Shown one piece after another: positions 1 to 61,271 of a stretch of 64,000 bases of DNA (positions are counted from its first letter, which is position 1; each line of letters starts with the position of its first letter). The stretch is from contig DAHWUP010000001.1 of the NCBI GenBank assembly GCA_027334565.1, positions 16,674 to 80,673 of the forward strand, given 5' to 3'. The translations under genes were made by a program, and so were the position numbers. The notes under the pieces were generated by a model that was given only the letters and a program-made list of their open reading frames with translations, was not told where the DNA came from and ran no database searches. This DNA is from Candidatus Levyibacteriota bacterium (GTDB lineage: Bacteria > Patescibacteriota > Microgenomatia > Levybacterales > UBA12049).

Positions 1-1171
1 AATATAAAAGCCTTGTCGGTTGCGCGGTGGAGATAAACGGTAAGTTAAAAAGAAAAGGAATTTTCGCAAAAATTGTCGGAAAGGAAAAGATAAGCGAGAT
101 AAAAAATAAGCAGCCGAAAAATAAAGTTTTTCTGTCCCTACGGAAAAAAAGACCGAAAATGGCAAAAATTAAAGGTATTATTCCGACATAACCGATGAAT
201 TCGCCGTAATTCCAAACGCCATAATAATTAAGAGTTGCCGGGTTCCCGAAAAAATCGGGCACCAAAAACTGGATAAGATTCTGCCAGGGAATAAACCATC
301 CCGGATTGCTGCTCCAGCCGGGAAGATCAAGACTGCGGGCCGAAAGCTGAATGAACCTGAAACCGGGTATAAGCTGCGGTAAACTTAAAATCATAAAAAT
401 TACAAAAAGTGCTATAAAAAGACCAAGCGTTCTTAACTTTTTCCCCGTCCTAAACCACCGCGCCAAAAAGTAAACGGCGGCCACTAACCCCAAGTAAAAA
501 AAGGCCTGAAGATATCCGGCAAAAAAAGAGGATACCAAAGAAAACAGGAATACCAGCGACCAGAGGATTTTCGACTGATGATTTTTTGTTCTTGACGATC
601 CCACCAGCTTATCGATCGACAAAAGAATAAGCGGCAACCACAAAGCAGTGTTCAAAATATTGCCCCATTCAAGCCAGGCGACGAAAAAACCGCCGAATGA
701 GAATGATAAAGCTCCCAAAAAACTTGCATATTTGTTTAACTTTAGGTTATCAAGATAATAATAAAGGAAAATTCCCGCAAGAAGCGGTTCAAAAAAAATA
801 AATAGACTCCAAGCGTCGGGAAATGACAAAATAAAAAATAATATGTTAAGAGGATAAAATGCTCCGGACTGGAAATTGGCAAGAAGCGGTGTTCCGGCGA
901 ACGTATAAGGGTTCCAAACCGGCAGCTGTTGGATCTTTTCCATTGAAATTGCCAACTGCTTCCAAGGGATCTGTTGTCTTACCGGATCGGTCACCAAAAA
1001 GTTTTTATACGGAAGTCCGTTGGGGTTAGTTTTTAAATAGGCATCTCTGAAAGGATAATAAAGCCCGACGATGGTGTCCGACGGAATCGGTAAAAGTCCC
1101 CTGATAAAAAGCTGCCAGAAGAAAATAAGAACTATCCCAAAAAACATTAACGGCGGTAAAAATTTTTTCAT
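1..1171 (-). CDS. YfhO-family GT-C-type membrane protein, partial (3' end runs off the window start). Not in the ORF track because it is truncated.
   Basis: Manual translation of the minus strand from the ATG at comp(1169..1171) is open to position 1: MKKFLPPLMFFGIVLIFFWQLFIRG...IPWKQLAISMEKIQQLPVWNPYTFAGTPLLANFQSGAFYPLNILFFIL... Co-linear with the YfhO paralogs at 4651..6984 and 18377..20758 (shared WNPY.F.G...A block, polytopic). Its ATG overlaps the TGA of the upstream gene (ATGA). Confidence 0.7.
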   Translation of the reverse strand, partial: MKKFLPPLMFFGIVLIFFWQLFIRGLLPIPSDTIVGLYYPFRDAYLKTNPNGLPYKNFLVTDPVRQQIPWKQLAISMEKIQQLPVWNPYTFAGTPLLANFQSGAFYPLNILFFILSFPDAWSLFIFFEPLLAGIFLYYYLDNLKLNKYASFLGALSFSFGGFFVAWLEWGNILNTALWLPLILLSIDKLVGSSRTKNHQSKILWSLVFLFSLVSSFFAGYLQAFFYLGLVAAVYFLARWFRTGKKLRTLGLFIALFVIFMILSLPQLIPGFRFIQLSARSLDLPGWSSNPGWFIPWQNLIQFLVPDFFGNPATLNYYGVWNYGEFIGYVGIIPLIFAIFGLFFRRDRKTLFFGCLFFISLIFSFPTIFAKIPFLFNLPFISTAQPTRLLY

Positions 1172-2262
1172 GCCAAAATCAAATTATCGACCCCTTTATG
1201 AAAGTTGTCTATAGTGAATTTTTTAGCTGATATCAAAGTCTTCCCGGATAAGGATTCCAATAATTTTTCGTTTTTTATTAACTTTAACGTTTCAGCCTTA
1301 AGTTCGTCGGTCGAATTCCATAAAAATCCGTTTACGCCGTCTTCAACTATTTCCCTTTGTCCTCCGGCATTGATAACCACCGGAACCGCTCCCGCATACA
1401 TCGCCTCAACGGTTGAGATCCCAAAATGTTCGGCATATTCGGGATGTTTTTGTAAATCTTCACCAAATCCCGAAGCATGCCAATAGATTTTCGCTCTGGA
1501 ATAGATGTCCCAAAGCTCATCGTTGGTCTTGTTCACCAAAAATTCCACGGGATATCCTTCGGCCCGCTTTTTTAAGCTTAACAGTAAATCTTGCTCTTTT
1601 AGGTTTACACTGACTGCCAGCACTAGCCTCCATTCCCTTAACCCTTTGTTGACCATTTGAATAAAAGTATCAAGCAATATTCCCTGCTTTTTATAATCGC
1701 CCACCGCTCTGTTTCTACCGTCGGTATTTGTGGTAACGTCTCTTACCCTAAGCCTTCCGACATTTAAGATGATATTTTCCTTATCGACCCTTTTTGATTT
1801 ATCGTTAACCGGAGGATACAAAACATAACTGTTTATACCAAACTCCTTATCGACAAAAGATTTTGTATACTTTGAGTTACAAAAGAATGTATTGATTTTT
1901 AGCTTCTTCAGGAAATTACTTACCGTCGGTTTAAGGTTTGGGAACGGCTGCTGAAAGTGAACCAGGGTTTTTTTAGAAAGCAAAAAGGGCAGGCTTCCGT
2001 CGCTTAGAATTATTATCAGGTCGTATTTGCGTGATCGATTTAACCTTTTGGTAAATGGCGTTTCGGCGGTAAAAATGTTTCCGACCAGCTTAACCTTATC
2101 AAGTTTTAAAGGGAAACGTTCTTCAAGCATTTTAAGGTCCTTTTCGTTTCCCCAAAACACATCAACCGAGTGTTTTTGCGACAGATATTCGGCGATGGTC
2201 ATCATGTACTTTTCTCCGCCGCCTAAATCGTCAAGATACGGGTCGAATATTCCAATCTTCAT
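1168..2262 (-). CDS. GT4-family (GT-B) glycosyltransferase
   Basis: C-terminal EX7E-type motif region EHFGISTVEAMYAGAVPVVINAGGQREIVEDGVNGFLW, typical of GT1/GT4 retaining glycosyltransferases. 364 aa, no TM segments. Confidence 0.8.
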   Translation of the reverse strand: MKIGIFDPYLDDLGGGEKYMMTIAEYLSQKHSVDVFWGNEKDLKMLEERFPLKLDKVKLVGNIFTAETPFTKRLNRSRKYDLIIILSDGSLPFLLSKKTLVHFQQPFPNLKPTVSNFLKKLKINTFFCNSKYTKSFVDKEFGINSYVLYPPVNDKSKRVDKENIILNVGRLRVRDVTTNTDGRNRAVGDYKKQGILLDTFIQMVNKGLREWRLVLAVSVNLKEQDLLLSLKKRAEGYPVEFLVNKTNDELWDIYSRAKIYWHASGFGEDLQKHPEYAEHFGISTVEAMYAGAVPVVINAGGQREIVEDGVNGFLWNSTDELKAETLKLIKNEKLLESLSGKTLISAKKFTIDNFHKGVDNLILA

Positions 2263-2274
2263 ATCTTATGCCTA

Positions 2275-4353
2275 TTATAAAGACAAATGCACATTATTGC
2301 CATTCTTTACTGGTTTATCCAACACTATCCTTAGAGTTCGTCCTTTTTGGTCGGTAATTACAATAGTTCCGCCGCTTTGACCCGATAGAACATCGTCATA
2401 CTCTTTCTCCAAACCGCTTATACCATGGTAATTGGCCGGAGAATAAAGTCTTGTACAGCATTCATAATAGCCGGTATTTTTTACCGATTGGAAAGAAACC
2501 GTCCCGTAATACAGACGCGTCTGATGGCTTGAAACCAAAAGACCTTTGAAAGCTTCAAGTTTATCAAGCTCCTGCGCGGACAAAGGGTAATTGGTGGTAA
2601 AAAGGTTAATATAGGTATTCGGGATGACATTCTCCGAATATGTATCGCGAAGACGAACCCCGTCAACTCCGGAAAGCTGTTTTAAATAGCTTAACATGTT
2701 CTGTTCGTCTAACGGATCCATCTTTGCGGGATTTATCGAAATCAGATAACCGTTTCCGTCCTGCGCCAAAGCTTGATTGCCGTTAAACAAGCCGCCTCTT
2801 TTCCCAAATTCTACCATCGTCTTAACGCTGTCACCGGGTCCGAAGCCATTGAGTAAAATCCCCCAATTCCATTCTATTTTCCATTGCGAATCATTCCGGA
2901 TAAGCGTTAAAAACTTCTCCTGCGAAAATTTTCCCAGATTCCAGGTATCATAGGTCACCAAAATTTTTGCACTGCCGATTTTGGAAAAAAGCGGAACATT
3001 TTCGTTTAGTTCTTTTACCTCGATATTCTCGATTTGTGCTCCAAGCATCGCTCTTTTGGAAAGTTCAAAAAAACCTTCCCTGGTAAAACCCGAAGGCTTA
3101 TTGGCGATATCCTCCTGATATATATCCTGAAAGTACTGATTGGAAAGATTGTAATAAAAATCGTTCAATGTTTGCCGGGGATTGGGGATAAGATAAACCC
3201 AGCAATTTAATAATCCTATTATCGGAATTAGTATTAAAAGTATTGCTTGCAATTTTCCTTTGATTAAATTCTTTATGAAATACGCGGATAACAGATAGGT
3301 AAAAGGGAGAACCAATAAAAGGTATCTTGGATATGAGGGGATTAAAGAAAAAACGATCACGGAAATCATTGTCAATATACCGATATATTTAATAAATTTA
3401 TCCTTGGTACCTTTTAATAACCATTTGACCGTCAAAAAAAGCGAAATGATGAACGATAAAGGCCAAAACAGCGTCCATTCGTATACCCTGTCAATACCCG
3501 CACCCGCGATAGACGGAAAATTGCCCAAAAAAAGACTATCCAAAAATGCTCCGTAATGGGTGGTAAGCTGCGACTTTAAGTAAAAACTAACGATGTATTT
3601 ATTAAGTCTTAAGAAATCGATCAACGAATGTCCCAACGCAAAATATCTTAAATATGGCAGGATGATACCCGTACCGAAAGCGCATAAAAACCAAAAATAT
3701 TCTTTGACCAATTTATTTTTTATAAACCAGTATGTTTCAAAAATAAAAATGATCGGCAAAAGGATCGGAAATTTACTTTGAGTAAAAAATCCCAAGGCCA
3801 GACCCGAAACCATTGACCATAAAGTTCTCCGACTGTTGTTGGTTATAAGGTAAAATGCCGAAAGATTCAGAAGCAGAAAAAAAAGCTGGGTGATATCCAA
3901 CCACGATTTGAAAAATTGAGAAAAAAACATCGGATCTTCGAATAACACCAGCGAGGTGAACAAAGCAAAAAATTTGTCCTTTAAGAAATTTTTTGCGAGA
4001 AAAAAATAAACAATGATGCAGGCAAACCCTACAACAAGCGAGTAAAAAATAGGATTATCAAACAGTACTATCGAAAGACCGATCAGATATTTGGCTAAGG
4101 GCGGGGCTTCGGGATTAACAAGCGACGGATCTTTGCCATTGATAAGTCCCAAGCCCACATAAGCGTACAAACCGTCATCGCCGATGATTCTTTGGGACAT
4201 CGGCATTTCCCATTGCGAATGCTCAAATCTGTCCTTCCAGTAACCGATGTCATAACTATTGAATACCGCACCCCGGTTAAAGTAAAACATTAAAAAAGTT
4301 TGGAAGATAAGCAGCGCGGCAAAGAAAAAATAAAGGACCTTGTTGTGCCTCAC
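2275..4353 (-). CDS. GT39/PMT-ArnT-like GT-C membrane glycosyltransferase fused to a C-terminal PBP-dimerisation/MecA_N-like domain
   Basis: N-terminal polytopic domain with the first-loop motif IIGDDGLYAYVGLGLINGKDPSLVNPEAPPLAKY (DD/DE...Y...HPPLxK signature of PMT/ArnT GT-C enzymes). About 300 aa of soluble C-terminus ending ...YHGISGLEKEYDDVLSGQSGGTIVITDQKGRTLRIV, matching the GxSGLEKxYDxxLxGxxG signature of PBP2/PBP2a dimerisation domains. Confidence 0.7.
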   Translation of the reverse strand: MRHNKVLYFFFAALLIFQTFLMFYFNRGAVFNSYDIGYWKDRFEHSQWEMPMSQRIIGDDGLYAYVGLGLINGKDPSLVNPEAPPLAKYLIGLSIVLFDNPIFYSLVVGFACIIVYFFLAKNFLKDKFFALFTSLVLFEDPMFFSQFFKSWLDITQLFFLLLNLSAFYLITNNSRRTLWSMVSGLALGFFTQSKFPILLPIIFIFETYWFIKNKLVKEYFWFLCAFGTGIILPYLRYFALGHSLIDFLRLNKYIVSFYLKSQLTTHYGAFLDSLFLGNFPSIAGAGIDRVYEWTLFWPLSFIISLFLTVKWLLKGTKDKFIKYIGILTMISVIVFSLIPSYPRYLLLVLPFTYLLSAYFIKNLIKGKLQAILLILIPIIGLLNCWVYLIPNPRQTLNDFYYNLSNQYFQDIYQEDIANKPSGFTREGFFELSKRAMLGAQIENIEVKELNENVPLFSKIGSAKILVTYDTWNLGKFSQEKFLTLIRNDSQWKIEWNWGILLNGFGPGDSVKTMVEFGKRGGLFNGNQALAQDGNGYLISINPAKMDPLDEQNMLSYLKQLSGVDGVRLRDTYSENVIPNTYINLFTTNYPLSAQELDKLEAFKGLLVSSHQTRLYYGTVSFQSVKNTGYYECCTRLYSPANYHGISGLEKEYDDVLSGQSGGTIVITDQKGRTLRIVLDKPVKNGNNVHLSL

Positions 4354-4400: not shown

Positions 4401-4667
4401 TTGAATATAATCGAAATGATGATCGGAAACGTCGATATCCAAACATTCGCATTGATTATAATACTCGTCGCCTGGACATTCGCGTGGAAAGGCGTTGCTT
4501 TATGGAGAGCGGCGAAACTCGGTCAAAAAAACTGGTTCATCGCTTTGATTATTTTAAGCATCCTCAACCTGTTGGGTCTGGTAGAAATCATTTATCTTTT
4601 CTTCTTTGCCAAGAAGAAATTAACCATCAAAGAAGTTAAATCCTGGTTTGTTAAACAAACCTCTTGA
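4401..4667 (+). CDS. small two-TM membrane protein (DUF5652-like?), the only plus-strand gene inside the minus-strand glycosylation operon
   Basis: 88-aa ORF with two hydrophobic helices and WRAAKLGQKNWF between them. Fills the 4354..4650 gap. Family name recalled from memory only. Confidence 0.45.
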   Translation: MNIIEMMIGNVDIQTFALIIILVAWTFAWKGVALWRAAKLGQKNWFIALIILSILNLLGLVEIIYLFFFAKKKLTIKEVKSWFVKQTS

Positions 4668-6984
4668 AGTTTAGCCAAATCAGAATTATAAAACCCAGAA
4701 CCGCGGCCCAAAACCCCAGCAAAAAGCTTGAAGGAAAATATACAAACTCTACAAGATGCTTACCTTTAGGGACGCTCACGGCGCGGAAGGAAAAATCGGC
4801 ACGATAAATATCCGTTTTTTTACCGTCGATATACACATTCCACCCCGGATAAAAATTATCCGAAAGAAAAAGAAGCGACCGTCCGTTCGAGTTGGTACGA
4901 ACGGATACTTTATCCGGTGTATAGCCGACAATATTAGCGCTGCCGGTTGAGGTTATTTTTTGATTTAGTTTTTGTTCCAAAACCACTTCCCTGCCCGGGT
5001 TAAAATTTTTATCAAACATCGTCGACAAAATCTTTTGCGGGCCGGTCTGTGTGATATACCTATCCACCAAAAAGACGCGAGGCAAAGCAGCGTTGTTTTG
5101 AAGGATCTGGTATACCCCGTCGTCATATAAAATCGAGAAATCACCGGGCCGATAGGCCCAAAAAGGGAATGTCCAGGAAGCATGATCGTCCGCCAGTTTA
5201 TGAATTACATATTTTACGCCCAAAAGGTCCATTCCAAGCTTAGTAAACTTGCCGTTTTTGGGGAAAGATACCACCGACCGTGCGGACTCCGTCAAAATGC
5301 CGTTTTGAAGCGATGCGATAAACTCCCCGTATCTTTGGTTATAAACAGCATCGTAACCCTCAAGCGAAGGCAAGCGATAATACGTCGTCGCTTCCTGGCC
5401 AAGATTACTGACAAAACGTACATTTGGCGTAAGTTTAGAAGTTACCGATACAACCGGCACCAACGGATAGGCAAATTTTACCGGATCTTTCGGCATCCAT
5501 TTGACCGAAAACCGGTACATGTCGAAAGCGACAATAAGCATTAGCACAAAGGACAGATATTTTATCCATGATAGTTTTTTAAAGCGGAGCAGTACCCCAT
5601 ATACAACAAGATAAGTAAGCAAAACGACAAACAATCCTGTCGGCAGGATCAGATTTTGTCTTGCGACAACAATCTCTTTTAAAGGCATGAAAAGTTTGAA
5701 AATTACCGTTAACCAAAGCATTAAGAAAAACGCCGCGAACGTTAAGATCCAGCCAAATATCAATTTAAGCTTCTTTTCCTTTAAATCCTTTGATAATTTA
5801 TCAAGCCCAAAGCCCGAAAGAACCGCGAAAGAAAAACTGAATAAAACAATTATCCTGCTCGCGGCGCTGGTTGAAAGAACGGGAATTTTTGATAAAACTA
5901 TCAGATTTATAAACGGTGTTTGAAATGCCAAAAGTATCGTGATAAGCGAAGCTACCAGAAAAAATAAAACATATTTGCTTTTTTTGACCAGAGTTAAGGC
6001 ATAAAACCCGAGCATTAAAGGTATCAACCCGAGATACGCGTTCCATTCGGCATAATGCCCGAACCAGTCGTTGCGGGTTACCGGATTGCCGAAAAAATCG
6101 GGTGCCAAAAAAGTCGCGAGGTATCCCCAAGGGATGATTTCCGTTTTCATAAAAATCGTACTGCGCAAAGACTGCATATAGCTTTCAACCGAAGGAAGGA
6201 CCTGCGGCATGGTTAAAAGTAATCCGGCTGCAAAATACGAAAGTATGAAAATCAGTTCTTTGAAATTTTTTGAAATCAGCGATTTAAAAATAAGATAGAA
6301 AAAGACATAAAGCGCAAAATATAAACTTATCTGGAAATGTCCGCTAAAAAAAGACAGGGGAAAAGTCAAAGATAATAATACAAGAAAAATCTTACGTCTG
6401 GTTTCGTAAAATTTTTCAACCGCCAAAAGGGCAAGAGGTAAAAACAATATCGCAAACCCGAGCGTTGCGTAACCCATCCAGGTAGTGATAAATCCGCAGA
6501 ACATGAATGCAAGCGAACCGACCAGGCCTGATATTTTTGATACCTTAAGCGTTCTAACATAAAAATACATGAATATACCCGCAAGAAGAGGCTGTAACAA
6601 AACCAACAGATTCCAGGCTAAGATAAAGGGCAGAATAAAGAACAGTAGATTAAAGGGACTGAGAACTGCCGACTGGTAATTGGCAAGCTGGGCCGTACCC
6701 GAAAAACTGTAAGGGTTCCATAAAGGCAGCTGTAAAGATTTGTAGGTATCAACGGTCAATTCTTTCCAAGGATAGATCTGGCTTAAGATATCGGGCATCG
6801 CCGCGTTTTTGACCGGCCCCGCAAAACCTGGATATGCATTCCAGGGAGAGAAAAAATTAACCAGATAATTGGTCGGAAGAACAGTTACATGCTCAAATAG
6901 ATACGGGAAAGCAAAAATAAACCAGAAAATCAGAATAAAGATAACCGGCCAAAAATTTAAAATTATTTTATTGATTCTTCCCAT
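4651..6984 (-). CDS. YfhO-family GT-C membrane protein
   Basis: 777 aa, polytopic. C-terminal YFPGW.VYIDGKKT...G.H.VEFVY module characteristic of YfhO. Paralogous to 18377..20758 and 1..1171. Confidence 0.8.
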   Translation of the reverse strand: MGRINKIILNFWPVIFILIFWFIFAFPYLFEHVTVLPTNYLVNFFSPWNAYPGFAGPVKNAAMPDILSQIYPWKELTVDTYKSLQLPLWNPYSFSGTAQLANYQSAVLSPFNLLFFILPFILAWNLLVLLQPLLAGIFMYFYVRTLKVSKISGLVGSLAFMFCGFITTWMGYATLGFAILFLPLALLAVEKFYETRRKIFLVLLSLTFPLSFFSGHFQISLYFALYVFFYLIFKSLISKNFKELIFILSYFAAGLLLTMPQVLPSVESYMQSLRSTIFMKTEIIPWGYLATFLAPDFFGNPVTRNDWFGHYAEWNAYLGLIPLMLGFYALTLVKKSKYVLFFLVASLITILLAFQTPFINLIVLSKIPVLSTSAASRIIVLFSFSFAVLSGFGLDKLSKDLKEKKLKLIFGWILTFAAFFLMLWLTVIFKLFMPLKEIVVARQNLILPTGLFVVLLTYLVVYGVLLRFKKLSWIKYLSFVLMLIVAFDMYRFSVKWMPKDPVKFAYPLVPVVSVTSKLTPNVRFVSNLGQEATTYYRLPSLEGYDAVYNQRYGEFIASLQNGILTESARSVVSFPKNGKFTKLGMDLLGVKYVIHKLADDHASWTFPFWAYRPGDFSILYDDGVYQILQNNAALPRVFLVDRYITQTGPQKILSTMFDKNFNPGREVVLEQKLNQKITSTGSANIVGYTPDKVSVRTNSNGRSLLFLSDNFYPGWNVYIDGKKTDIYRADFSFRAVSVPKGKHLVEFVYFPSSFLLGFWAAVLGFIILIWLNFKRFV

Positions 6985-8659: not shown

Positions 8660-9572
8660 GGAGTTTAACGGAAATTTTGCGCAGGTTTCGCCTTAGCGGA
8701 TTTTTTATCGACTCCAGTTTTTCTTTACCGAACCAAAACGCAACTTCCTTTCCGGCTTTTTGAAACTCTCCCTCGGTATCTTTTAAGAAATCCTCTTTAT
8801 CGTATTCTTTAAAACCTTGTCTCTCCCAGATGAAAACGAATACCAGAAAATGGTAAAAACTTTGCATCATGGATAGTATGAGTCCGTGAAAACCGTCTTT
8901 GTAGCCTTTTCTGGCAAAAAACCAGCTTAAAAAATCGGCCAGGGGAAAACGGATGACGTCGAAATAAGAGAATTGGTAGCCGTCCGAAAGTAATCCTTCC
9001 GCTTCGTTGGGCGCATAGATCAGAATTTTTTTAATGTATTGTTCCACCGAATCGTAGTTATGATGGATCAGGTGCTCTTTAAGCTTTTCTGTTTCTCCCA
9101 AGATAACAAGATCCTGATGAACTTTTTTACTCTCATACTTTCCTTTACCCTTTCGGAAAAGTCTCAGCTGATAATCCGGATACCAGCCGGTGTTGTGTTC
9201 TATCCATTTACCGAAAATATAATTTTTTCTCGGGAGCCAAAAGCCGTTGATAGCCGATAGCGCCGAAGGTTTGGCCGAAAGCACTTTTTTTATTTCTCCC
9301 GCGAGCTCTTTGGAAACTTCCTCATCAGCATCAACGCTTAAGATCCAATCACCGGTTGCCTTTTCGAAACCGAAATTTTTTTGCCTGTCAATTTCTTTGG
9401 GATTGTTTTTCTGCGTATAAATATTATCCGTATACTTTGATGCGATGGAGACGGTTTTATCGGTCGAAGAATTGTCGACCACTACAACTTCGTCCGCAAA
9501 AGCAAGTGACTTAAGGCATCTTTCGATGTTTCTCTCTTCGTTGAAAGCGGAAATTACGGCAGAAATTTTCAT
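8649..9572 (-). CDS. GT2-family glycosyltransferase
   Basis: ISAVISAFNEERNIERCLKSLAFADEVVVVDNSSTD...DADEEV. 307 aa. Confidence 0.8.
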   Translation of the reverse strand: MKISAVISAFNEERNIERCLKSLAFADEVVVVDNSSTDKTVSIASKYTDNIYTQKNNPKEIDRQKNFGFEKATGDWILSVDADEEVSKELAGEIKKVLSAKPSALSAINGFWLPRKNYIFGKWIEHNTGWYPDYQLRLFRKGKGKYESKKVHQDLVILGETEKLKEHLIHHNYDSVEQYIKKILIYAPNEAEGLLSDGYQFSYFDVIRFPLADFLSWFFARKGYKDGFHGLILSMMQSFYHFLVFVFIWERQGFKEYDKEDFLKDTEGEFQKAGKEVAFWFGKEKLESIKNPLRRNLRKISVKLRGL

Positions 9573-11023
9573 TTGCCTAAATTCTCCTTAACCAATCTAA
9601 AATCCGAGATAATCTGTTCTTTAGCAATTATAAAGCTAACGCCGAAGTATATCAAAGCACCTACTCCGCACATTAAAATGGCCAGAATCAAATTTTTTAC
9701 AAAAATGGGGCTTAAAAAATATACCGCTATTCCCATCACCGTCGACGCGGCAACGGGAACTGCGGTGGTCGAAAATATGCTGAAGTTAACGTATCTTTTA
9801 GATATCCAAACCACGGCAACGACCGACAGGGAAATGATCGCCGAGGCAACCGCTACCCCGTTAAAGCCGTAGAAAATGATCAGCGCCGGTGTTAAAACCC
9901 AGGTGGCTACGGTCCAAAAAACCATCAGATACAGGGAAATTTTTATTTTCCCGATGGCGTTTAGGGCATTGGTCAAAGGAGTGGTTATAGAAGAAAGGGC
10001 GGCGTTGACGGAGAAAAACATTAAAGACAGTACGGCGGGTTCCCATTTTAAGTATTTGGGGATGAAATGGACAAAATAAGGCGCCATTATAACTAATCCG
10101 GTAAGCGCCGGGAAGATGATGAAACAAGAGGCAAACAGTGCTTTTTCGATCGCCTTGGTGAGTACATCTTTATTGTGTTGCAGTCTTGAGAACGAAGGAA
10201 AAGTGATCCTGATAACATTATCCATAATCAGCCTCAACGGCATATAGGCCCATTTTTGGGCGAACCCGATATAACCGACCTGCGCGATAGGCAATGCTTT
10301 TCCAAGATAAGCCACGAACAGATCGTCCTTGATAAGTCCCAAGAAACTGTTTGTCTGAAACGGAATTCCGAACGAAAGAAGCTTTCGGGCGGACTCTTTG
10401 GAAAAGCCGAAACCGATTCTCCATGGTCTGATAATATAAATTGCGATAAGTCCAGCTACGCCTCTTACCAAAACTGCCAAGGTAAAACTGGTCACACCGA
10501 ATCCAAGGTATGCAAACACCACGGCGATGACGCTAAAGAAGAAAACCTCCACGATTTGTGGGATAACCAACTTTTCAAACTGCAAATCTCGTTCCAGAAT
10601 TATCGAAGGAATGGTTTTTAAGGATGAAAGGAAAAAAGATATTGCGAGCGCCTGATAAAGCATTACTTCTTCCGCTTTTAGGTTATAAAATTTAGCCACG
10701 AATGGAGAAAGCAATAGCGCGACTATGACAACCGTGACCACCAAAGCCTGCTGGATCGTGAATGTTGTACGAAGTTCCGTTTCGGTGATCTGTTCTTTTT
10801 TTTGGATCAATGCGGCAGCCAACCCGATGTCGGAGAAGTAGGACAAGAAAGCGATCGCCGCCGAAACGACAAAATATACTCCGAAAACCGCCGGCGATAA
10901 GAAAATCGTCAACAGTAAATTACTGAAGAAACTGACCAGTTGGATGACAAATGTTCTCGATGTAAGAGCAAAAATGCCTTTGATAGATCTTTTGGTCACG
11001 ACCGCGATGTCGATTTCTTCCAT
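9569..11023 (-). CDS. Wzx-like polysaccharide/oligosaccharide flippase (MOP superfamily)
   Basis: 484 aa, about 12-14 TM. N-terminal SIKGIFALTSRTFVIQLVSFFSNLLLTIFLSPAVFGVYFVVSAAIAFLSYFSDIGLAAALIQ is typical of polysaccharide-biosynthesis (Wzx) proteins. Confidence 0.7.
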   Translation of the reverse strand: MEEIDIAVVTKRSIKGIFALTSRTFVIQLVSFFSNLLLTIFLSPAVFGVYFVVSAAIAFLSYFSDIGLAAALIQKKEQITETELRTTFTIQQALVVTVVIVALLLSPFVAKFYNLKAEEVMLYQALAISFFLSSLKTIPSIILERDLQFEKLVIPQIVEVFFFSVIAVVFAYLGFGVTSFTLAVLVRGVAGLIAIYIIRPWRIGFGFSKESARKLLSFGIPFQTNSFLGLIKDDLFVAYLGKALPIAQVGYIGFAQKWAYMPLRLIMDNVIRITFPSFSRLQHNKDVLTKAIEKALFASCFIIFPALTGLVIMAPYFVHFIPKYLKWEPAVLSLMFFSVNAALSSITTPLTNALNAIGKIKISLYLMVFWTVATWVLTPALIIFYGFNGVAVASAIISLSVVAVVWISKRYVNFSIFSTTAVPVAASTVMGIAVYFLSPIFVKNLILAILMCGVGALIYFGVSFIIAKEQIISDFRLVKENLGK

Positions 11024-11024
11024 A

Positions 11025-11726
11025 TTAAAAATTCAGTTCTTTCCAAAGCAGGAGACTTTCTTTGACCGCGCGAAGAATCACCCTTAAATTCCCTCCCGTC
11101 TGGTCTCCGTAAATTCTCGGGTAGTGGTTCACTTCGACCTGGACGATTTTAAGATGTGCTTTTTTGGCTTTTGCCAAAATCTCCGTCGTGATCATCGCTC
11201 CTTCGGATTTAAGCGGCCTGATCTTATCAATGGCCTCTTTCCTGAATAATTTGAACCCGCAATCAATATCCTTATAATAAAATCCGAATAGTATAAGATC
11301 CCAGATCTTCAGTAAATTCATCAGAATATGCCTGAACGGGTTATCCCTTCTTCTCTTACGGTGTCCGATGACGATATCGGCGTGATCGATCTTATCCAAA
11401 AATTTAGTTACTTCGGAAAAATCGAACTGACCGTCGCCGTCGTTAAAAACGATGTACTTGTATTTTGCGTTATCAAAACCCTCTCTTAAGGCGGCACCAT
11501 AGCCTCGGTTGGGCCGATGCGATATCAGCTTCAGGTTGTCATTGCGGGCCTCGAGTTTTTTGGCGATTTGGGCGGTATCGTCGGAAGAGCCGTCGTCGAC
11601 CATGATTATTTCCCATCTGTCTGCCACTTTTTCGGCAACGGGGATGGCTTTCTCAACCACACGTTCGATATTTTTGCCCTCGTTCCAAAAGGGGAAAAAA
11701 ATTGTCAGTTCCGAAATTTTATTCAT
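11025..11726 (-). CDS. polyprenol-phosphate glycosyltransferase (GT2, DPM1/GtrB/ArnC-like)
   Basis: FPFWNEGKNIERVV...EIIMVDDGSSDDTAQIAKKLEARNDNLKLISHRPNRGYGAALREGF...FNDGDGQFD. Classic dolichol/undecaprenol-phosphate sugar synthase motifs. Confidence 0.8.
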   Translation of the reverse strand: MNKISELTIFFPFWNEGKNIERVVEKAIPVAEKVADRWEIIMVDDGSSDDTAQIAKKLEARNDNLKLISHRPNRGYGAALREGFDNAKYKYIVFNDGDGQFDFSEVTKFLDKIDHADIVIGHRKRRRDNPFRHILMNLLKIWDLILFGFYYKDIDCGFKLFRKEAIDKIRPLKSEGAMITTEILAKAKKAHLKIVQVEVNHYPRIYGDQTGGNLRVILRAVKESLLLWKELNF

Positions 11727-13447
11727 CTATGTCTCTTCTTATGAATTATACCAGTAACCAGTAGCAACATACCAGCAATGGAGACCAAATCCGCCGTTTT
11801 TTCGATAGGAGTTTGGTCGTAACTTAAAGTCACCGTATGATTCCCGGCGGCTAAATTGATCAAAATACCCTTTTGCACCGAAGAAAAACCGGTTTTTTGC
11901 CCGTCCACCTTGATGTTCCAGAAGGGGAAATACGCAATCGGGATAAGTATTGCTACGTTGCTGTCGGAATAAGTAGTAAAATCATAATTCTGGGGGTCTA
12001 TTTTCAGATAATCCACCAAAGCGCTGCCGTAAACCGTCTTTACTTTTCCGTCGGAAACCTGATCCGGATTTTGGGGTACGAAAAAACCGGGAGGCATATA
12101 TTCATAAGTCAGGCGGGAAACCAGCCATTTGACCGCATAATCGCTGGTATACAAGGAGGGGTTACTGCCGTATATTCCCGCATACTCTATAGAACCGTTA
12201 TGGCTGGTCGGTGAGGTAAAAAAATATTTTGTGCTCACCAATATTAGTGTTAATATCAAAAGCGAAGCGACTCCAAATTTAAAATGCTTCGGGTATTTTT
12301 TGACCGGCAGATATTCCAGCAACTTTACGAACAAACCGGCAAGGATGGCACAAAAGAACAATACCATCAACAGGAATCGCCACGGAAACTGAAAATAATT
12401 CATCAGGGGAATATTCTGCCAGATAAAATCGGAATAGCTTAGGGTTAGAAAAGCGGAAAAAGCCAGTCCGAAAAATGAGACCAAAGCAATCAGTAACCAC
12501 TTTCTCGTCTCTTTTTTCTTTTTATAAAAATAAACGGTAATAGCTAAGATCAAGGCTATGAGCGAAATCAAAATTTGGCTTTTTCCTATCATAAAAGACA
12601 TCCCGTCCACGCACCCCGGCACCGAACCGCCGAAACCCCAGGGGCTGGTCCAAAGCTGCGTCAAGCAGACAAAATTGTTTTGATAGCCTCCTACTTGTGA
12701 CAAAACATTTGAATATTTCATTTCCGACAACGCCGGAAGCCAGTAAAAACAAGAGACCAAAACCCCGAGAATTAAACCCGCGAAAAGGTACAAATAAGTT
12801 TTCTTCTCGCGCTTAAAAGGTACGAACGCAAGTATCCAGACAAAGACGAAAAGGAAGGGGAAAACCATCATCGCCGTTAGGTTATGGGAAAGAATTATGC
12901 CGGCAAAGCCCAAGGCGGCAGTAGCCACACCCTTAAAGTTTTTTTCTCTGAAAGTTTTTAAAACGCCATAAAAAGCAAGGGGAATAAAGGCATAGGCCCA
13001 AAATTCAGCCACGTCTCCCCTGACATAAATGTCAACCGCATGATACGGAGCGTAAACATAAAACAGTGCCGATACGATACCCGCCAATTTACCGAACAAC
13101 TCATCGGCGAGCAGGTACATGAACACTCCCGAAAGCAAAATTCCAAGGGCCATCATCGCTTTCGCGGAAAACAACGGGTCAAATCCCAAAAGATTAAAAA
13201 ATGAACCGGCATAATAAGCAAGCGGGGCATAAAAATTGAAAATCGGGTAACCATAGCCAAAACCCAGATCCTGTACCCATCGGACCGGGAACATCCCGCT
13301 TTTTAGCGATTTGGTCATCTCAAATACCCTTTGAACCTGGGTATCGTCATGAACCGGGAAGAACCCCGGATGCAAAAGCGGGGCAATTGCGAAAAAAGAC
13401 AAAACTATCACCAATACCAACGGTAAAAATCGCTTTATTTTTTCCAT
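11723..13447 (-). CDS. YfhO-related GT-C-like polytopic membrane protein (paralog A)
   Basis: 574 aa. N-terminal FPVHDDTQVQRV...YGYPIFNFYAPLAYY...YVYAPYHAVDIYVRGDV and C-terminal YFPFWNIKVDGQKT...GNHTVTLSYDQTP resembling the YfhO C-terminal module. Aligns end-to-end with 13435..15087. Confidence 0.55.
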   Translation of the reverse strand: MEKIKRFLPLVLVIVLSFFAIAPLLHPGFFPVHDDTQVQRVFEMTKSLKSGMFPVRWVQDLGFGYGYPIFNFYAPLAYYAGSFFNLLGFDPLFSAKAMMALGILLSGVFMYLLADELFGKLAGIVSALFYVYAPYHAVDIYVRGDVAEFWAYAFIPLAFYGVLKTFREKNFKGVATAALGFAGIILSHNLTAMMVFPFLFVFVWILAFVPFKREKKTYLYLFAGLILGVLVSCFYWLPALSEMKYSNVLSQVGGYQNNFVCLTQLWTSPWGFGGSVPGCVDGMSFMIGKSQILISLIALILAITVYFYKKKKETRKWLLIALVSFFGLAFSAFLTLSYSDFIWQNIPLMNYFQFPWRFLLMVLFFCAILAGLFVKLLEYLPVKKYPKHFKFGVASLLILTLILVSTKYFFTSPTSHNGSIEYAGIYGSNPSLYTSDYAVKWLVSRLTYEYMPPGFFVPQNPDQVSDGKVKTVYGSALVDYLKIDPQNYDFTTYSDSNVAILIPIAYFPFWNIKVDGQKTGFSSVQKGILINLAAGNHTVTLSYDQTPIEKTADLVSIAGMLLLVTGIIHKKRHR

Positions 13448-15087
13448 AATTTTTTAGCCTTCATCAAAGGAAAAGAAATAAAATAAATAACAAGTCCCAG
13501 GAAACTAATTAGCGAGATGATATCGCTGAATAATCTTAAGGGAGTCTCCGTAAAAAACCCCTTTACGTAGTGCTGACCGGACAAAACCGCGATCTCCATC
13601 ACTCCCATCGGATTATTGTACCCGATACCAACAAGCCGTCCGTCCACACTTATCTTCCAGCCGGGATAATAAATAGTATTAATGGTCACCGATTCCGCTT
13701 TGGGAAGACTTAAGGAAAATGATATTTTTTTGGAATTTTGAGTAAGATCGCTAACTGTACCCGACGAAACTTCCACCTTCTTGTTCCAGGACCGGAGAGG
13801 TTGCTGCTTTACCCATAACGGCATCAATTCGTTTGAGGAGGTGGTCGTTCCCTGGTTGGTTAGATAAAATGCATCACCCCGGTTAACGTAACCGGAAGGT
13901 TTGGCATAAGGAAGGTCGACGACGACGGCAAATAACGTTAATAATAAACCTATCATCAGATAAACCTTGCCTTTATTGACCAAATATCCTGCCATAAGGC
14001 TGACCGTGAACATGACGATTGCAAGCATCGTCCAGGGATAATTGATCTCCGAAAGAAACGGCGTATGCGACCAGACAAACGACGTAAAGGAGAAAAATAA
14101 AAGTGATAAACAAAGGGTTGAAATTATTAAAAACAAACCGAGTAGTTCATCTCTGTCTTTATGCTTAACGATATTTTTTACAACCAGAAACAGGACCAAT
14201 AAAAATACAGCCGCTTGCGCGAGTCCTATTTGGTAACCGAAACCGTTTGGGTCAGTCGGTACACCGTAACCCCATTTTGGAATAATCAGCTGGAGCGGAT
14301 TAACGAAGTAAAGATTTCTGTCTGCTATCGGAATTTTAGATAGCAAGATCATGTTCTTTTCAAAAATCGCGGGTATCCAAAAAAACGCTGCCAGACAAAG
14401 GGAAAAAATAAATGACAAGGTAAGCCTTACGAAAAATTCTATTTTTTTGGCAAATAACGCCCAAAGAAAAATAAAGCCGATAAAAAGACCGAATAAAACG
14501 GTCATGATGTTATGAGTGGCGATCAATAGACCAAAGGTTGTACCGGTAAAAAGCATGCCCACAAGGTCCTTTTCTTCGTAAATGCGTTTGACGCCCAAAA
14601 TGATCAATGGAAAAAGGACAAAAGACAAGGACTCCCCTATAGAGCCGCGGACATACAAATCGACCAGACGGTACGGAACATATATGTATAATACGGCACT
14701 GACCAAACCCGCCCATTTGTTCCGCCACAATGAATCAGATAAAAGAAACATTGAAAAAAAGGAAAAAATCACACTTAGGGCAAACAGTAACTTAATGCTT
14801 CCGACAAACCCGAATTTTAAAAATACGAAAATGAGTCCCAAGTAGTAAGGTAACGGATAGGCAAAGTTGAATAACGGATAACCGTACTGAAAATTAAGAT
14901 AACCGCTATACCTTGCCGGGAATTGCAAGTCCTTCACCTCCCGGTACATGTCGGACAGCCGAACCACGGCCCATTCCCCGTCATGCGTCGGGAAATAGCC
15001 GGTTTTAAAATAAGGCAGGATCAGCGGTATACTGACGATTAAAGAAAGCAGCAATACTTTGAAATAAAAAATGATTATCTTTTTCAT
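13435..15087 (-). CDS. YfhO-related GT-C-like polytopic membrane protein (paralog B)
   Basis: 550 aa. FPTHDGEWAVVRL...YGYPLFNFAYPLPYY...YIYVPYRLVDLYVRGSI and C-terminal YYPGWKISVDGRLV. Tandem paralog of the preceding gene. Confidence 0.55.
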   Translation of the reverse strand: MKKIIIFYFKVLLLSLIVSIPLILPYFKTGYFPTHDGEWAVVRLSDMYREVKDLQFPARYSGYLNFQYGYPLFNFAYPLPYYLGLIFVFLKFGFVGSIKLLFALSVIFSFFSMFLLSDSLWRNKWAGLVSAVLYIYVPYRLVDLYVRGSIGESLSFVLFPLIILGVKRIYEEKDLVGMLFTGTTFGLLIATHNIMTVLFGLFIGFIFLWALFAKKIEFFVRLTLSFIFSLCLAAFFWIPAIFEKNMILLSKIPIADRNLYFVNPLQLIIPKWGYGVPTDPNGFGYQIGLAQAAVFLLVLFLVVKNIVKHKDRDELLGLFLIISTLCLSLLFFSFTSFVWSHTPFLSEINYPWTMLAIVMFTVSLMAGYLVNKGKVYLMIGLLLTLFAVVVDLPYAKPSGYVNRGDAFYLTNQGTTTSSNELMPLWVKQQPLRSWNKKVEVSSGTVSDLTQNSKKISFSLSLPKAESVTINTIYYPGWKISVDGRLVGIGYNNPMGVMEIAVLSGQHYVKGFFTETPLRLFSDIISLISFLGLVIYFISFPLMKAKKLWKK

Positions 15088-22309: not shown

Positions 22310-23491
22310 TCAACGCTTTTGCAGTAACCTTTTTGAATACAGTATTATTAGCGGTAAAACAAATGTAGCCGCCAAGCCGATCGATTCAAACCGGAATAGT
22401 ACCCCGGGATACCCTTTGGCGTAATCGGTCATATAAACATAAGGGATGTAGACAGCTGCGGCAAAAATCGATGCAAAAAACGAAGTCACAAAAATGTATG
22501 ACTTCTTGGAGGTGAATGCCGCCATCGACAGGGGAAATATCAGATACCATGGCTGAAATGTAGTTCTTAGAGTTGCAATCAAAACGGTTAAAAGCGAGAG
22601 GCAGACAGCGGCGGTGAAAAATTTCTCCCAGCTTATTTTTCCTCCCCTCCTTAAGAAAAACTCCAGGATAAAAAATAGGGGCAATAATATCCCTGTTGAA
22701 AATTTGATGCCGATGGAAAAAATATTGCTAATCCATGATAACGCTGTTTTCTTTTGTAAAATAAGATAAATCGATAACAAAATGAAAAAAATCATCGGAA
22801 TGTCGTTATGCGCGGAAATTAACGATTCGATTAGAACCAGGGGGTTAAAAGCAAAAAATACGGTATTGAAAATTTTATGTTCAGGAAAGATCATTTCCGA
22901 AATTTTATAAATTAAATAACAACTGCCCAAAAAAGATAGTCCCATTAATAATTTAAAAAGGAAAAAGGTCGGAAGGAATATGCCGAGGCCTAAAAAAGAC
23001 AAAGGTACCGTTAAAATGAGCCAACTCGGTCCGTAGGGATAAGTTCTGTGCGTCCAACGCATGAAATTAAGCATCGGATCATTAAAAAAATTTCCGGCCG
23101 AATGGAGATACGGATTCTGCTGGTAATGAGTGATTATCCTGGCGTCGAAAATATAATTGAACAGATCGTAAGAAAAAGCGTTATAAGAAAACACCAAGGT
23201 CACAAAGCTTAAAACCGTAAGTATTTTTAGATTTCTAAGAGAAAGCTTACCATTTTTCGCAAGATTTAGAAAAACAAAATAAAAAATGAATAAGAATGTT
23301 AACAAGACCAAAAGGATCAGGGTTGATAACGGCCGTTGGAAAAATCCGATGTATTGCAACGCTTTTTCGGCGGTTTGGTAGACCGATATTTTCGAAAGCG
23401 TAAGATTTAAGTCTACCTGGGTGAACGAATAAACAAAAAAAGTTATCAGCAATAAAACGTAAGAGGAAAAAAGCAGTTTCAACTTACTCAT
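22310..23491 (-). CDS. polytopic membrane protein, possibly DUF2029/GT87-like GT-C mannosyltransferase
   Basis: 393 aa, about 10 TM. Loop motif HYQQNPYLHSAGNFFNDPMLNFMRWTHRTYPYGPSW (NPY...YPYGP) is reminiscent of DUF2029. Family assignment from memory only. Confidence 0.45.
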   Translation of the reverse strand: MSKLKLLFSSYVLLLITFFVYSFTQVDLNLTLSKISVYQTAEKALQYIGFFQRPLSTLILLVLLTFLFIFYFVFLNLAKNGKLSLRNLKILTVLSFVTLVFSYNAFSYDLFNYIFDARIITHYQQNPYLHSAGNFFNDPMLNFMRWTHRTYPYGPSWLILTVPLSFLGLGIFLPTFFLFKLLMGLSFLGSCYLIYKISEMIFPEHKIFNTVFFAFNPLVLIESLISAHNDIPMIFFILLSIYLILQKKTALSWISNIFSIGIKFSTGILLPLFFILEFFLRRGGKISWEKFFTAAVCLSLLTVLIATLRTTFQPWYLIFPLSMAAFTSKKSYIFVTSFFASIFAAAVYIPYVYMTDYAKGYPGVLFRFESIGLAATFVLPLIILYSKRLLQKR

Positions 23492-24261
23492 AGATTTTTA
23501 TATTTCCCTGTCAAATCGTTTATCCTGATACTAAATAAATCCTCCAAGCCTTCGAGCGAATCTTTTATCGGACTTACCCTTCTTGACTCTACGTATAGCC
23601 ATTCTACCGGGACCTCCTTGATCTTATAGCCGCTTTTTTGCGCCAACAACAGCAATTCGACGTCAAACCCTGCCTTTACCGAGGAGCCGGAAATGGTTTT
23701 ATACCCGTGATGTAATTTGGATAACCTCGAAAATAAATCGTCCGAGACGTCTTTCTTAAAAAGCTTGAAACCGCATTGGGTATCGGTGATCCCCGGCAAA
23801 CCGACAACGAGCTTTCTTAGAATTATCATCCCTTTTCCCATTAATGCTCTGGTCCAAGGCGCCCCCTCGCGATGGGAGTTTCGGCTGCCGATCACGATAT
23901 CAAAATCTTTAAGGTACGGTAACAGCCTATCTATCTCCTCGATCGGTGTAGCCTGGTCCATATCTGCAAAAAGAACATTTTGTCCTTTGGCCTTAAGCAT
24001 TCCAGCCGATATCGCTCCGGCTTTACCAGTATGGGAATTTTTAAAAAGTCTGAAATCGGGATTCTCTTTTGCGAATCTCTCAACGAATTCGATGCTCCCG
24101 TCGGTTGAGCCGTCGTCGACAACAATCACTTCATAAGCGAATTTCCGCTTATTGAGAAAATGTTGGACCTTATCCAAAACTCCCTTGTGGAGGTTGGCGA
24201 TTTCATTGTAAGACGGGATTACAATTGAAAGGTATGGCGGTTTCACAAATTGATTATACAA
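23488..24261 (-). CDS. polyprenol-phosphate glycosyltransferase (GT2, DPM1/GtrB-like)
   Basis: LSIVIPSYNEIANLHKGV...EVIVVDDGSTDGSIEF...NSHTGKAGAISAGMLKAKGQNVLFADMDQATP. First gene of the long minus-strand operon. Confidence 0.8.
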   Translation of the reverse strand: MYNQFVKPPYLSIVIPSYNEIANLHKGVLDKVQHFLNKRKFAYEVIVVDDGSTDGSIEFVERFAKENPDFRLFKNSHTGKAGAISAGMLKAKGQNVLFADMDQATPIEEIDRLLPYLKDFDIVIGSRNSHREGAPWTRALMGKGMIILRKLVVGLPGITDTQCGFKLFKKDVSDDLFSRLSKLHHGYKTISGSSVKAGFDVELLLLAQKSGYKIKEVPVEWLYVESRRVSPIKDSLEGLEDLFSIRINDLTGKYKNL

Positions 24262-40839: not shown

Positions 40840-40859
40840 ATTGTGATTATAATCACAAT
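40840..40859. promoter_or_regulatory. 20-bp perfect palindrome ATTGTGATTATAATCACAAT (with an embedded TATAAT) upstream of the giant adhesin gene
   Basis: Perfect dyad symmetry. A putative promoter, TTGCAT (40866..40871)-N17-TATATG, lies immediately downstream. Candidate operator. Confidence 0.6.
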
Positions 40860-40992
40860 ATTATATTGCATAAATAGCAATAAATATGTATATGAATTGA
40901 ATTACTACGGGTTATTGCATTTTAATATATCGAATGGTACTATTCGGACAATCTTAATTTATACCCGCCCGAATACAATTAGATTAAATTTA

Positions 40993-47733: not shown

Positions 47734-47738
47734 TTATT

Positions 47739-48689
47739 ATGAATAAACTGTTTAAATCATTGTTAATGTCTTTTGCGGCACTCTTCCTTTTTTCAGGGGT
47801 AAGTTTTGCTTCAACTTCGGTAAGGCTGCAGCAGCCGCAAACACCCACCAACCAGAATGCGTTCAACATCACTTTTGTTGCTTTGGATACCAACTCGTCC
47901 CAGGTTGTAACTGTTCAGTGCCAAAAACAGGGTCCGGGTGATTCAAATCCTGTGAATTTCGGCTCACCTATCACGCTTTCTGCCGGCGGCAATACCAACG
48001 TTTGCCAGGTCGGAAACGGACTATTGAATCAAAACGGCACTTACCAGTTTGACGTAATCGCCTACGGATCAAGCACTACAACCAGCAATACCGTCAACGT
48101 AGACTTTAATACCGATGGACCGGGCACACCCGGCAATTACAATAAAACCAAACCCGACAACTGCACTTACGAGATAACCTTTAGAACGGCCGACGACAAT
48201 GGGAAAACCGTCAAGGTGGTCTTGTACCGTTCGTCCAATCAGAACTTTAGCTTAGACAACGGAACCCAGGTAAACCAGGTTAGTATCGGTTCGAACACCG
48301 ACGGCTCGATGACCGACAACATCAGCCCAAACTGCAATACCAACTATTACTACGCGATCAGGGCTTTTGATAAATACGGAAACGGCTCGGGAGCAACCGG
48401 AGACAGTTCAACATCTACAACAATCATCAGTCCGACAGTTACGCAGCAGGAAGGAGCAATAGCCGGCGGTACCGCGGGAAATGTGCTTGGAGCCGAAGCC
48501 GGTGGACAAGGACAAGTTTTGGGTACGGAAAGTGCAAAACCGACCCAAACCCCTGCAAAAGTAACGGGACAAAATCCTGTTTCAAACGCAGTAAACTGGG
48601 TACTTACCCACAAAAAGGTCAGCTTGCTGGTTCTAATAATTTTGGCAGCGATTGCATACTTTCTTTACCGCAGATACTATAAAAAGTAA
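47739..48689 (+). CDS. secreted Ig/Fn3-like protein with a C-terminal membrane anchor
   Basis: Signal peptide MNKLFKSLLMSFAALFLFSGVSFAS, two beta-rich domains (...NYYYAIRAFDKYGNGSG), then a Gly/Ala-rich stretch and a C-terminal TM with an RRYYKK tail. No canonical LPXTG (nearest is PAKVTG). Confidence 0.6.
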   Translation: MNKLFKSLLMSFAALFLFSGVSFASTSVRLQQPQTPTNQNAFNITFVALDTNSSQVVTVQCQKQGPGDSNPVNFGSPITLSAGGNTNVCQVGNGLLNQNGTYQFDVIAYGSSTTTSNTVNVDFNTDGPGTPGNYNKTKPDNCTYEITFRTADDNGKTVKVVLYRSSNQNFSLDNGTQVNQVSIGSNTDGSMTDNISPNCNTNYYYAIRAFDKYGNGSGATGDSSTSTTIISPTVTQQEGAIAGGTAGNVLGAEAGGQGQVLGTESAKPTQTPAKVTGQNPVSNAVNWVLTHKKVSLLVLIILAAIAYFLYRRYYKK

Positions 48690-48698
48690 AATAGAATC

Positions 48699-57825: not shown

Positions 57826-57870
57826 GCGATGATTATAGCAAAGAAGGCTTAAAATTACCTGAGATTTATA

Positions 57871-59739: not shown

Positions 59740-59858
59740 AAACGGGTCAGAATTTATGTTCTGATTTTAGACTAGCAATTATTTTAAGGTTAGTCAATAC
59801 GCATAAATATTAGAGGCCATAATTTGTATTTACGTCGTAATCTTAATATAATTTATGA

Positions 59859-61226: not shown

Positions 61227-61271
61227 GAACCTATTATAACAGAGGCTAAAAATCGAAATTTTGCACCTAGA

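Follow-up and report, generated by a model that had tools for sequence, protein, structure and literature searches.

Organisation of the locus

[quoted passage not shown] Both the ORF and the signature peptide GISGLEKEYDDVLSGQSGG (residues 644-662), which had been singled out in an earlier note on this DNA, were found. The ORF starts with GTG, and its stop codon TAA (2275-2277) is followed by TAG; as the GT4 gene begins 12 nt downstream, no transpeptidase-like sequence can follow, in line with the absence of this domain claimed in the note. For the identical protein P0001, NCBI gives 671 aa with a start at M22, which would remove TM1, whereas the 692-aa start fits the homolog alignment and helix 2-25 of the AlphaFold2 (AF2) model. 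The last membrane helix ends near residue 388 and is followed by the anticipated ~300 soluble residues; the soluble domain had been placed at 2278-3160, and its extent stood except for the start, which lies at approximately residue 390 (coordinate 3186, not 3160).

The array begins with the GT4 gene, the fusion gene, a YfhO gene (777 aa), three GT2 genes, a Wzx/MOP flippase gene and a GT2 gene of 233 aa, continues with a YfhO/PMT_2 protein, a 550-aa ORF without a match and two PMT_2 proteins, and ends with another YfhO gene (793 aa), a PMT_2/PMT protein, a 393-aa ORF with weak likeness to a mannopyranosyltransferase, and a GT2 gene of 257 aa. In total, 23 kb hold three YfhO genes and four or five of the PMT_2 type, and GT-C genes occur throughout 2275-22278. 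The two short GT2s (233 and 257 aa) show sub-cutoff likeness to polyprenyl-phosphate sugar synthases, the matches being AglJ, ArnC (PRK10714), PgfS, PpgS and a Dol-P-hexose transferase, and the Wzx/MOP flippase and the 233-aa GT2 are candidate suppliers of a lipid-linked donor. A sortase and a surface protein of 2296 aa with SpaA repeats are likewise encoded in the window and fit a Gram-positive-like envelope that contains peptidoglycan.

Table 1 Features of the fusion gene and of its neighbours in the window
Feature	Position	Strand	Extent or basis
GT4, cytoplasmic, downstream of the fusion gene	1168..2262	minus	Pfam Glycos_transf_1 and Glyco_transf_4
Fusion gene, GT-C and PBP2a-type N-terminal module	2275..4353	minus	692 aa
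bPBP pedestal (PBP_dimer)	2278..2778	minus	residues 526-692
bPBP N-module motif 3, G644-ISGLEKEYDDVLSGQSG-G662	2368..2424	minus	signature given in the earlier note
NTF2-like MecA_N domain	2854..3180	minus	residues 392-500
GT-C membrane domain	3187..4353	minus	residues 1-389
R55-I-I-G-D59-D60 motif, first external loop (predicted)	4174..4191	minus	translation
YfhO-family GT-C, upstream of the fusion gene	4651..6984	minus	777 aa; Pfam YfhO E=5e-24
Wzx/MOP flippase	9569-11023	minus	Pfam Polysacc_synt_3 E=3.6e-50; NCBIfam MOP flippase E=2.7e-40
GT2	11025-11726	minus	233 aa; Pfam Glycos_transf_2
GT2	23488-24261	minus	257 aa; last gene of the array

The soluble half corresponds to the N-terminal module of PBP2a

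A Pfam search of the soluble region matched PBP_dimer (PF03717, E=4.8e-9) at residues 526-675, spanning profile positions 14-177 of 180, with 37.3 bits against a gathering cutoff of 24.4 bits, and this domain, proposed in the earlier note, was matched in all 47 of the 47 family members compared. MecA_N (PF05223, E=4.9e-4), also proposed there, matched at residues 392-500 and in 32 of the 47 members; in the window protein its score of 20.8 bits falls just below the 22-bit cutoff. The NCBIfam models for enterococcal PBP4(5) (residues 393-691 on model positions 38-338) and for PBP2a (residues 367-691 on model positions 3-327) gave alignments that both stop at the transpeptidase boundary. A phmmer search of PDB sequences returned PBP2a at E=1e-8, and a profile of the C-terminal domain built from 16 sequences aligned end to end with Bacillus subtilis PBP3 (7bn9, E=2.5e-25), PBP2a (3e-19) and enterococcal PBP5/PBP4 (~1e-16), while MrdA and PBP2x were matched through the pedestal part only. 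The similarity of this module to PBPs is far beyond chance.

The AF2 model built from 47 homologs has a mean pLDDT of 92.6 and a pTM of 0.88, the latter indicating defined packing of the membrane and soluble domains. The top 50 Foldseek matches of this model in the PDB were PBP2a, PBP5 and PBP3 only (E~1e-14, probability 1.0 and ~312 columns for the top matches), which bears out the structural resemblance to PBP2a expected from the sequence, and the NTF2-like extension that precedes the pedestal in the PBP2a/PBP5/PBP3 subclass is present. Residues ~390-692 align end to end with PBP2a (MecA), E. faecium PBP5, E. faecalis PBP4 and B. subtilis PBP3, the PBP2a counterpart being residues 27-326 (N-terminal extension and allosteric/pedestal domain). 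Chain index 301, or PBP2a residue 326, is the last position of the alignment to PBP2a, and the transpeptidase domain of PBP2a begins at residue 327 (bioRxiv 10.1101/2025.02.22.637770). In real bPBPs the pedestal ends at the strand leading into the transpeptidase domain; here, the protein ends at the equivalent of PBP2a residue 326 and is followed by stop codons and the GT4 gene, and it is therefore not a PBP. The module resembles its bPBP counterpart in lying on the outer side after a membrane helix, and it has the W motifs of the NTF2-like part as well as bPBP motifs 1-3 in common with MecA_N-type bPBPs. Unlike bPBPs, the fusion protein has no transpeptidase domain (PF00905) and no SxxK, SxN or KTG motif, and it is anchored by an enzyme with 11 predicted TM helices rather than by a single helix.

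Distribution and conservation of the fusion

A word-indexed search returned at least 120 full-length homologs of 660-713 aa with 35-54 % identity, and an exhaustive profile search of 1.84 billion cluster representatives (clusters at 50 % identity) returned 455 representatives at E<=1e-30. The best 150 of these 455 all have the two-domain architecture or are fragments; the maximum length among them is 734 aa and none retains a transpeptidase domain. Of 260 proteins retrieved, 251 contain both halves according to local HMMs, within a single ORF of 640-734 aa. All named genomes belong to Patescibacteria/CPR (Levybacteria, Roizmanbacteria, Gottesmanbacteria and 'Patescibacteria group'), and the fusion architecture is conserved across several hundred CPR lineages.

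The gene is split into two or three ORFs in related loci L014 and L016, as might be expected if the fusion were an artefact or a product of decay, that is, a frameshifted, truncated or chimeric GT-C and bPBP gene minus the transpeptidase half. This is extremely improbable, given that the 251 homologs with both domains in one ORF come from independent assemblies, that 455 clusters match at E<=1e-30, that conservation is strong in both domains, and that two stop codons and then a conserved GT4 gene follow the ORF. The intact two-domain homologs effectively refute a reading of the gene as a truncation or pseudogene.

The family gene lies inside an envelope-glycan cluster (GT2, GT4, Wzx, YfhO, PMT_2) in 8 of 19 related loci, and other family members have PMT_2, GT2, GT4 and Wzy_C genes as neighbours. 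In L001, L003, L004, L012, L014, L015, L017 and L022 the family gene is immediately followed by a GT4 ortholog, which in L007 is nearby, and YfhO occupies the equivalent upstream position in L004, L014, L017, L019 and L022. One family member adjoins a sortase gene, and one lies among housekeeping genes.

Conservation was scored in 227 near-full-length members, comprising a main group of 171 and a divergent group of 56. R55, D59, D153, K194, R343, Y344 and P350 of the GT-C half are 98-100 % conserved in both groups, and these residues are more strongly conserved than the pedestal motifs. The stronger constraint on the enzyme half argues for catalytic activity, and the GT-C enzyme is probably active.

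The membrane half has a GT-C fold

From the DSSP helices of the AF2 model and the positive-inside rule (K/R-rich short loops), we infer 11 TM helices, an internal N-terminus and an external C-terminus. This topology would place the R55-IIG-D59-D60 motif, D153, K194, the long loop 240-295 (with K252), P339/R343/Y344 and the C-terminal domain on the outer face. R55 and D59 are 100 % conserved in the 227 members, and D60 occurs in 95 % of the main group. D59 opens helix 59-71, within the loop that follows TM1, and corresponds to the conserved acidic residue of the first extracytoplasmic loop. By analogy with ArnT, PglB and Pmt1, which share the GT-C fold, we take D59 to be the putative catalytic base and a candidate counterpart of ArnT D55 and Pmt1 D77; as an assignment by fold analogy only, the catalytic residue is putative.

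Sequence likeness to GT-C enzymes of the PMT/ArnT/OST type (GT39, GT83, GT66) is marginal. The window protein itself matched neither Pfam PMT (PF02366) nor PMT_2 at E<=10; among the 47 homologs, 23 matched PMT (best 9.7e-9) and 16 matched PMT_2. A family profile of the N-terminal domain found nothing at E<=10 among all PDB sequences, so the GT-C identity rests on the fold and on the Pfam hits of homologs. Alignment of the N-terminal domain family to two PMT_2 paralogs of the window by hhalign gave insignificant probabilities of 1-14 %, with single sequences as templates. The GT39/PMT-type assignment of the earlier note holds for the GT-C fold, and not for a Pfam PMT or PMT_2 match of the protein itself.

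In the fold comparison of the membrane domain, the closest structure was Pmt4, with AglB and ArnT near. As the nearest folds are protein glycosyltransferases, the protein could be an O- or N-glycosyltransferase for secreted or surface proteins (S-layer proteins, sortase-anchored adhesins) resembling PMT, PglB or AglB; the PBP domain would then be reused as a scaffold for protein recognition or simply as a cap over the active site, with no link to peptidoglycan. However, the fold does not fix the acceptor class, since scores nearly as high were obtained for ArnT, which acts on lipid A, and for the ALG and Aft enzymes, and a complete, motif-conserving PBP2a-type module maintained over hundreds of lineages is hard to explain for a protein acceptor. 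Glycosylation of proteins is, for these reasons, a doubtful function for this family.

Pedestal motifs and the PBP2a allosteric site

The fusion protein carries three motifs that we regard as characteristic of the N-terminal modules of bPBPs: GKRG-x-I/L-x-D..G..LA (R519-G520), R613-x-Y615, and G644..G647-x-E649..L656-x-G658..G661-G662. The third aligns with GLEKLYDKKL of PBP2a and GLENVYEDKL of PBP3, and within the 171 main-group members G644 is 98 %, E649 94 % and G661/G662 97 % conserved. Overall, motifs 1-3 are 94-98 % conserved in the main group. In the divergent group of 56, motif 1 (R519) is lost and the motif 3 region is mostly unalignable, which indicates that the role of the pedestal motifs is not universally required.

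The PBP2a counterpart of the module binds peptidoglycan fragments (Otero et al. 2013, as summarised in bioRxiv 10.1101/2025.02.22.637770), and the titles of PDB entries 3zg5 and 3zg0 describe PBP2a with peptidoglycan fragments bound. The allosteric network of PBP2a includes N146, K148, E150, E294, D295, Y297, K316 and K319 (bioRxiv 10.1101/2025.02.22.637770). When these residues were mapped by profile alignment, which is uncertain at ~18 % identity between the fusion module and MecA_N-type bPBPs, E294/D295/Y297 corresponded to Q659/S660/G662 and N146/K148/E150 to V514/F516/K518, none of them conserved. Lysine is matched by lysine only at K316 (K680) and K319 (K683). As the allosteric residues are mostly unmatched, a PBP2a-like ligand site is not demonstrated in the fusion protein. 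In another study, peptidoglycan binding was attributed to the PASTA domain only, with no evidence for the pedestal (PMC9426605).

Docking is another possible role of the pedestal. SEDS proteins polymerise lipid II and belong to a fold family different from GT-C. According to PMC12516126, the bPBP pedestal is required for interaction with the SEDS glycosyltransferase, and pedestal-SEDS fusions and pedestal-only proteins occur elsewhere. The fusion protein might thus act as a pseudo-bPBP whose pedestal and last membrane helix bind SEDS (RodA/FtsW) and/or MreC, either coupling glycosylation to nascent peptidoglycan synthesis or modulating SEDS without crosslinking. The complete pedestal with its conserved motifs 1-3 would suit this role, as would the NCBIfam PBP2a alignment, which starts at model position 3 and includes the membrane anchor; in L018, the only such locus, the family member is directly downstream of a MurJ homolog. 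Gene context otherwise lends docking no support: the 40 annotated ORFs of the window include no gene for a SEDS, bPBP, Mre or Mur protein. We consider docking unlikely, if somewhat less so than a role in protein glycosylation. The earlier note had suggested physical coupling to the peptidoglycan synthesis machinery, and this part of it found no support, the context being that of envelope glycans and not of SEDS, bPBP, Mre or Mur genes. A more economical reading than such coupling is that a glycan-decorating enzyme is targeted to the wall or to its acceptor.

Proposed function

Soluble domains known from GT-C enzymes include the MIR domain of eukaryotic PMTs, the periplasmic domain of ArnT and PglB, and the carbohydrate-binding modules of Emb and AftD; unlike in those enzymes, the soluble domain of the fusion is PBP-derived. 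In the scheme described for multi-component transmembrane glycosylation, a C55-P-sugar is synthesised by a GT-A enzyme and moved by a flippase, after which a GT-C enzyme uses it to decorate a wall polymer outside the membrane; acceptor binding is the presumed role of the extracellular domains present in larger GT-Cs (PMC8035078). The array resembles the CsbB/GtcA/YfhO, GtlA/GtlB and GacI/GacL systems in that a GT-A synthase, a flippase and a YfhO/PMT_2-type GT-C are co-encoded (PMC8035078), and differs from them in that the flippase is of the Wzx/MOP type, not GtcA, and in the approximately eight GT-C paralogs of the cluster. This match in gene set leads to the proposal of a GT-C transferase with a PBP2a-type acceptor-side domain. 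None of the multi-component systems described in PMC8035078 has a PBP-derived acceptor domain.

On balance, we favour, with slightly better than even confidence, an active GT-C (PMT/ArnT/OST-like) enzyme whose PBP-derived module aims transfer at peptidoglycan or a peptidoglycan-linked polymer. In this scheme, a GT2 of the cluster would load a sugar onto polyprenyl phosphate, or a polyprenyl-PP-glycan flipped by Wzx would be made, and the lipid-linked donor would reach the outer leaflet; on gene context (the GT2s and Wzx), a polyprenyl-phosphate-linked sugar is the candidate donor. The GT-C domain would then transfer the sugar to an envelope acceptor; D59 would be the catalytic base, and the lipid phosphate of the donor would be handled by K194, K252, R343 and Y344. 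The PBP-derived module would replace the acceptor-binding periplasmic domain of ArnT, PglB, AftD and Emb, and would direct the GT-C domain to peptidoglycan or the peptidoglycan-linked polymer.

A more specific version, which we put forward only tentatively and think improbable as it stands, has the PBP2a-like module holding a peptidoglycan strand or lipid II, which the GT-C domain glycosylates directly or to which it ligates the Wzx-flipped glycan of the cluster. In Gram-positive bacteria, LCP enzymes attach wall polymers to peptidoglycan; if this version is true, CPR bacteria would have a GT-C route for the same attachment, and the 'allosteric/pedestal' half of PBP2a-type proteins would be an autonomous, portable peptidoglycan-recognition module.

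Relation to described proteins

Both halves of the protein are well-known families, and their combination is undescribed in the literature searched: the earlier note knew of no characterised example, and literature searches likewise found no description of a GT-C and PBP-pedestal architecture. A survey of InterPro reported 2572 proteins with a pedestal and no transpeptidase domain, some of them assigned to 'Bacteria incertae sedis', and described fusions of a pedestal to SEDS (Garcia-del Portillo et al. 2025, PMC12516126); that article describes no GT-C/PMT-type fusion and mentions neither Patescibacteria nor mannosyltransferases. The family can be seen as a GT-C enzyme whose acceptor-side domain has no precedent or, equally, as a PBP2a-type module employed outside a PBP. 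The role of this module in bPBPs is debated between binding of peptidoglycan and docking to SEDS/MreC, and bears on PBP2a allostery in MRSA; as the fusion separates the non-catalytic half of a PBP2a-type protein from its transpeptidase, it provides a natural test of the module alone. It may also offer a first handle on the targeting of envelope glycosylation in CPR bacteria, which are rich in GT-C enzymes. In databases, family members are named 'NTF2-like N-terminal transpeptidase domain-containing protein', 'hypothetical protein' or 'mannosyltransferase', names that fail to convey the two-domain architecture.

Start codon and sequence variation of the GT-C/MecA_N/PBP_dimer fusion family

NCBI annotates the identical protein (P0001) with 671 aa, beginning at M22 of the target, and most of TM1 is thereby lost (window 4291-4353, minus strand); the upstream GTG start, which gives a protein of 692 aa, agrees with the alignment of homologs and with a confident AF2 helix spanning residues 2-25. 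The target carries vicinal cysteines, C632-C633 (window 2455-2460, minus strand), within the motif ECCTR(I/L)YS, and the pair is found in 84-85 % of main-group members, whereas alignment comparison showed that it is missing in PBP2a and PBP3, two class B PBPs with a MecA_N extension, and in the divergent subgroup. C632-C633 may form a disulfide on the extracytoplasmic side or bind a metal. The divergent subgroup (56 of the 227 near-full-length members; P0185-P0260) retains the enzyme residues and the overall length, and has lost bPBP motif 1 (R519) and W39/R42 as well as the cysteine pair; its final ~75 residues are hardly alignable.

Genomic context of the target and its relatives

The features located in the window and in related loci are listed in the table. 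In the window annotation, the GT-C genes of the array around the target comprise three YfhO and four or five PMT_2 genes, plus the target itself. The density of GT-C genes is unusually high for a 23 kb region on a single strand. A Pfam search of the window gave no match for two ORFs within this array (550 aa and 393 aa) or for the ORFs at 49820-50707 (plus strand) and 60564-61226 (minus strand). The 550-aa ORF is also kept in related loci L001 and L007, and the sole match of the 393-aa ORF was to alpha-1,6-mannopyranosyltransferase A.

Features in the window and in related locus L018
Feature	Position	Strand	Remarks
GT-C-rich array	window 1168-24261	-	about eight GT-C genes, five GT2, one GT4, one Wzx flippase
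550-aa ORF	window 13435-15087	-	flanked by GT-C genes
393-aa ORF	window 22310-23491	-	weak NCBIfam match only
Giant-protein/sortase locus	window 40843-49289	+	2296-aa protein, 316-aa ORF, sortase
Sortase	window 48699-49289	+	follows 316-aa ORF, 3' of 2296-aa protein
Histidine kinase	window 56116-57147		two-component system
Response regulator	window 57148-57825		two-component system
GH130 beta-1,4-mannooligosaccharide phosphorylase-like protein	window 57871-59739		622 aa; adjoins two-component system
Further PMT_2 GT-C gene	window 61272-63026		near the GH130-like gene and two-component system
MurJ (lipid II flippase) homolog and family member	L018 8262-12067	shared	MurJ homolog directly upstream

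The clustering of the two-component system, the GH130-like phosphorylase and a PMT_2 GT-C gene (56116-63026) hints at turnover of a mannose-based glycan. Besides DUF11, the 2296-aa protein contains prealbumin-like domains of the types SpaA_4 (11 copies) and SpaA_2 (2 copies). Its locus, in a CPR genome, resembles those that encode giant, sortase-anchored adhesins or pili in Gram-positive bacteria.

Among the 22 loci, the L018 MurJ homolog is the only peptidoglycan-pathway neighbour of a family member; a sortase gene adjoins the family member in L009. The title of the L014 record names a 'Candidatus Pacearchaeota archaeon', and several TPA MAGs (L002-L005, L007, L008 and L011) carry the title 'uncultured Gammaproteobacteria', yet all bear the same CPR-type cluster, and these records are therefore probably mislabelled or mis-binned. 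The family gene in L014 and L016 is broken into two or three ORFs by frameshifts or sequencing errors.
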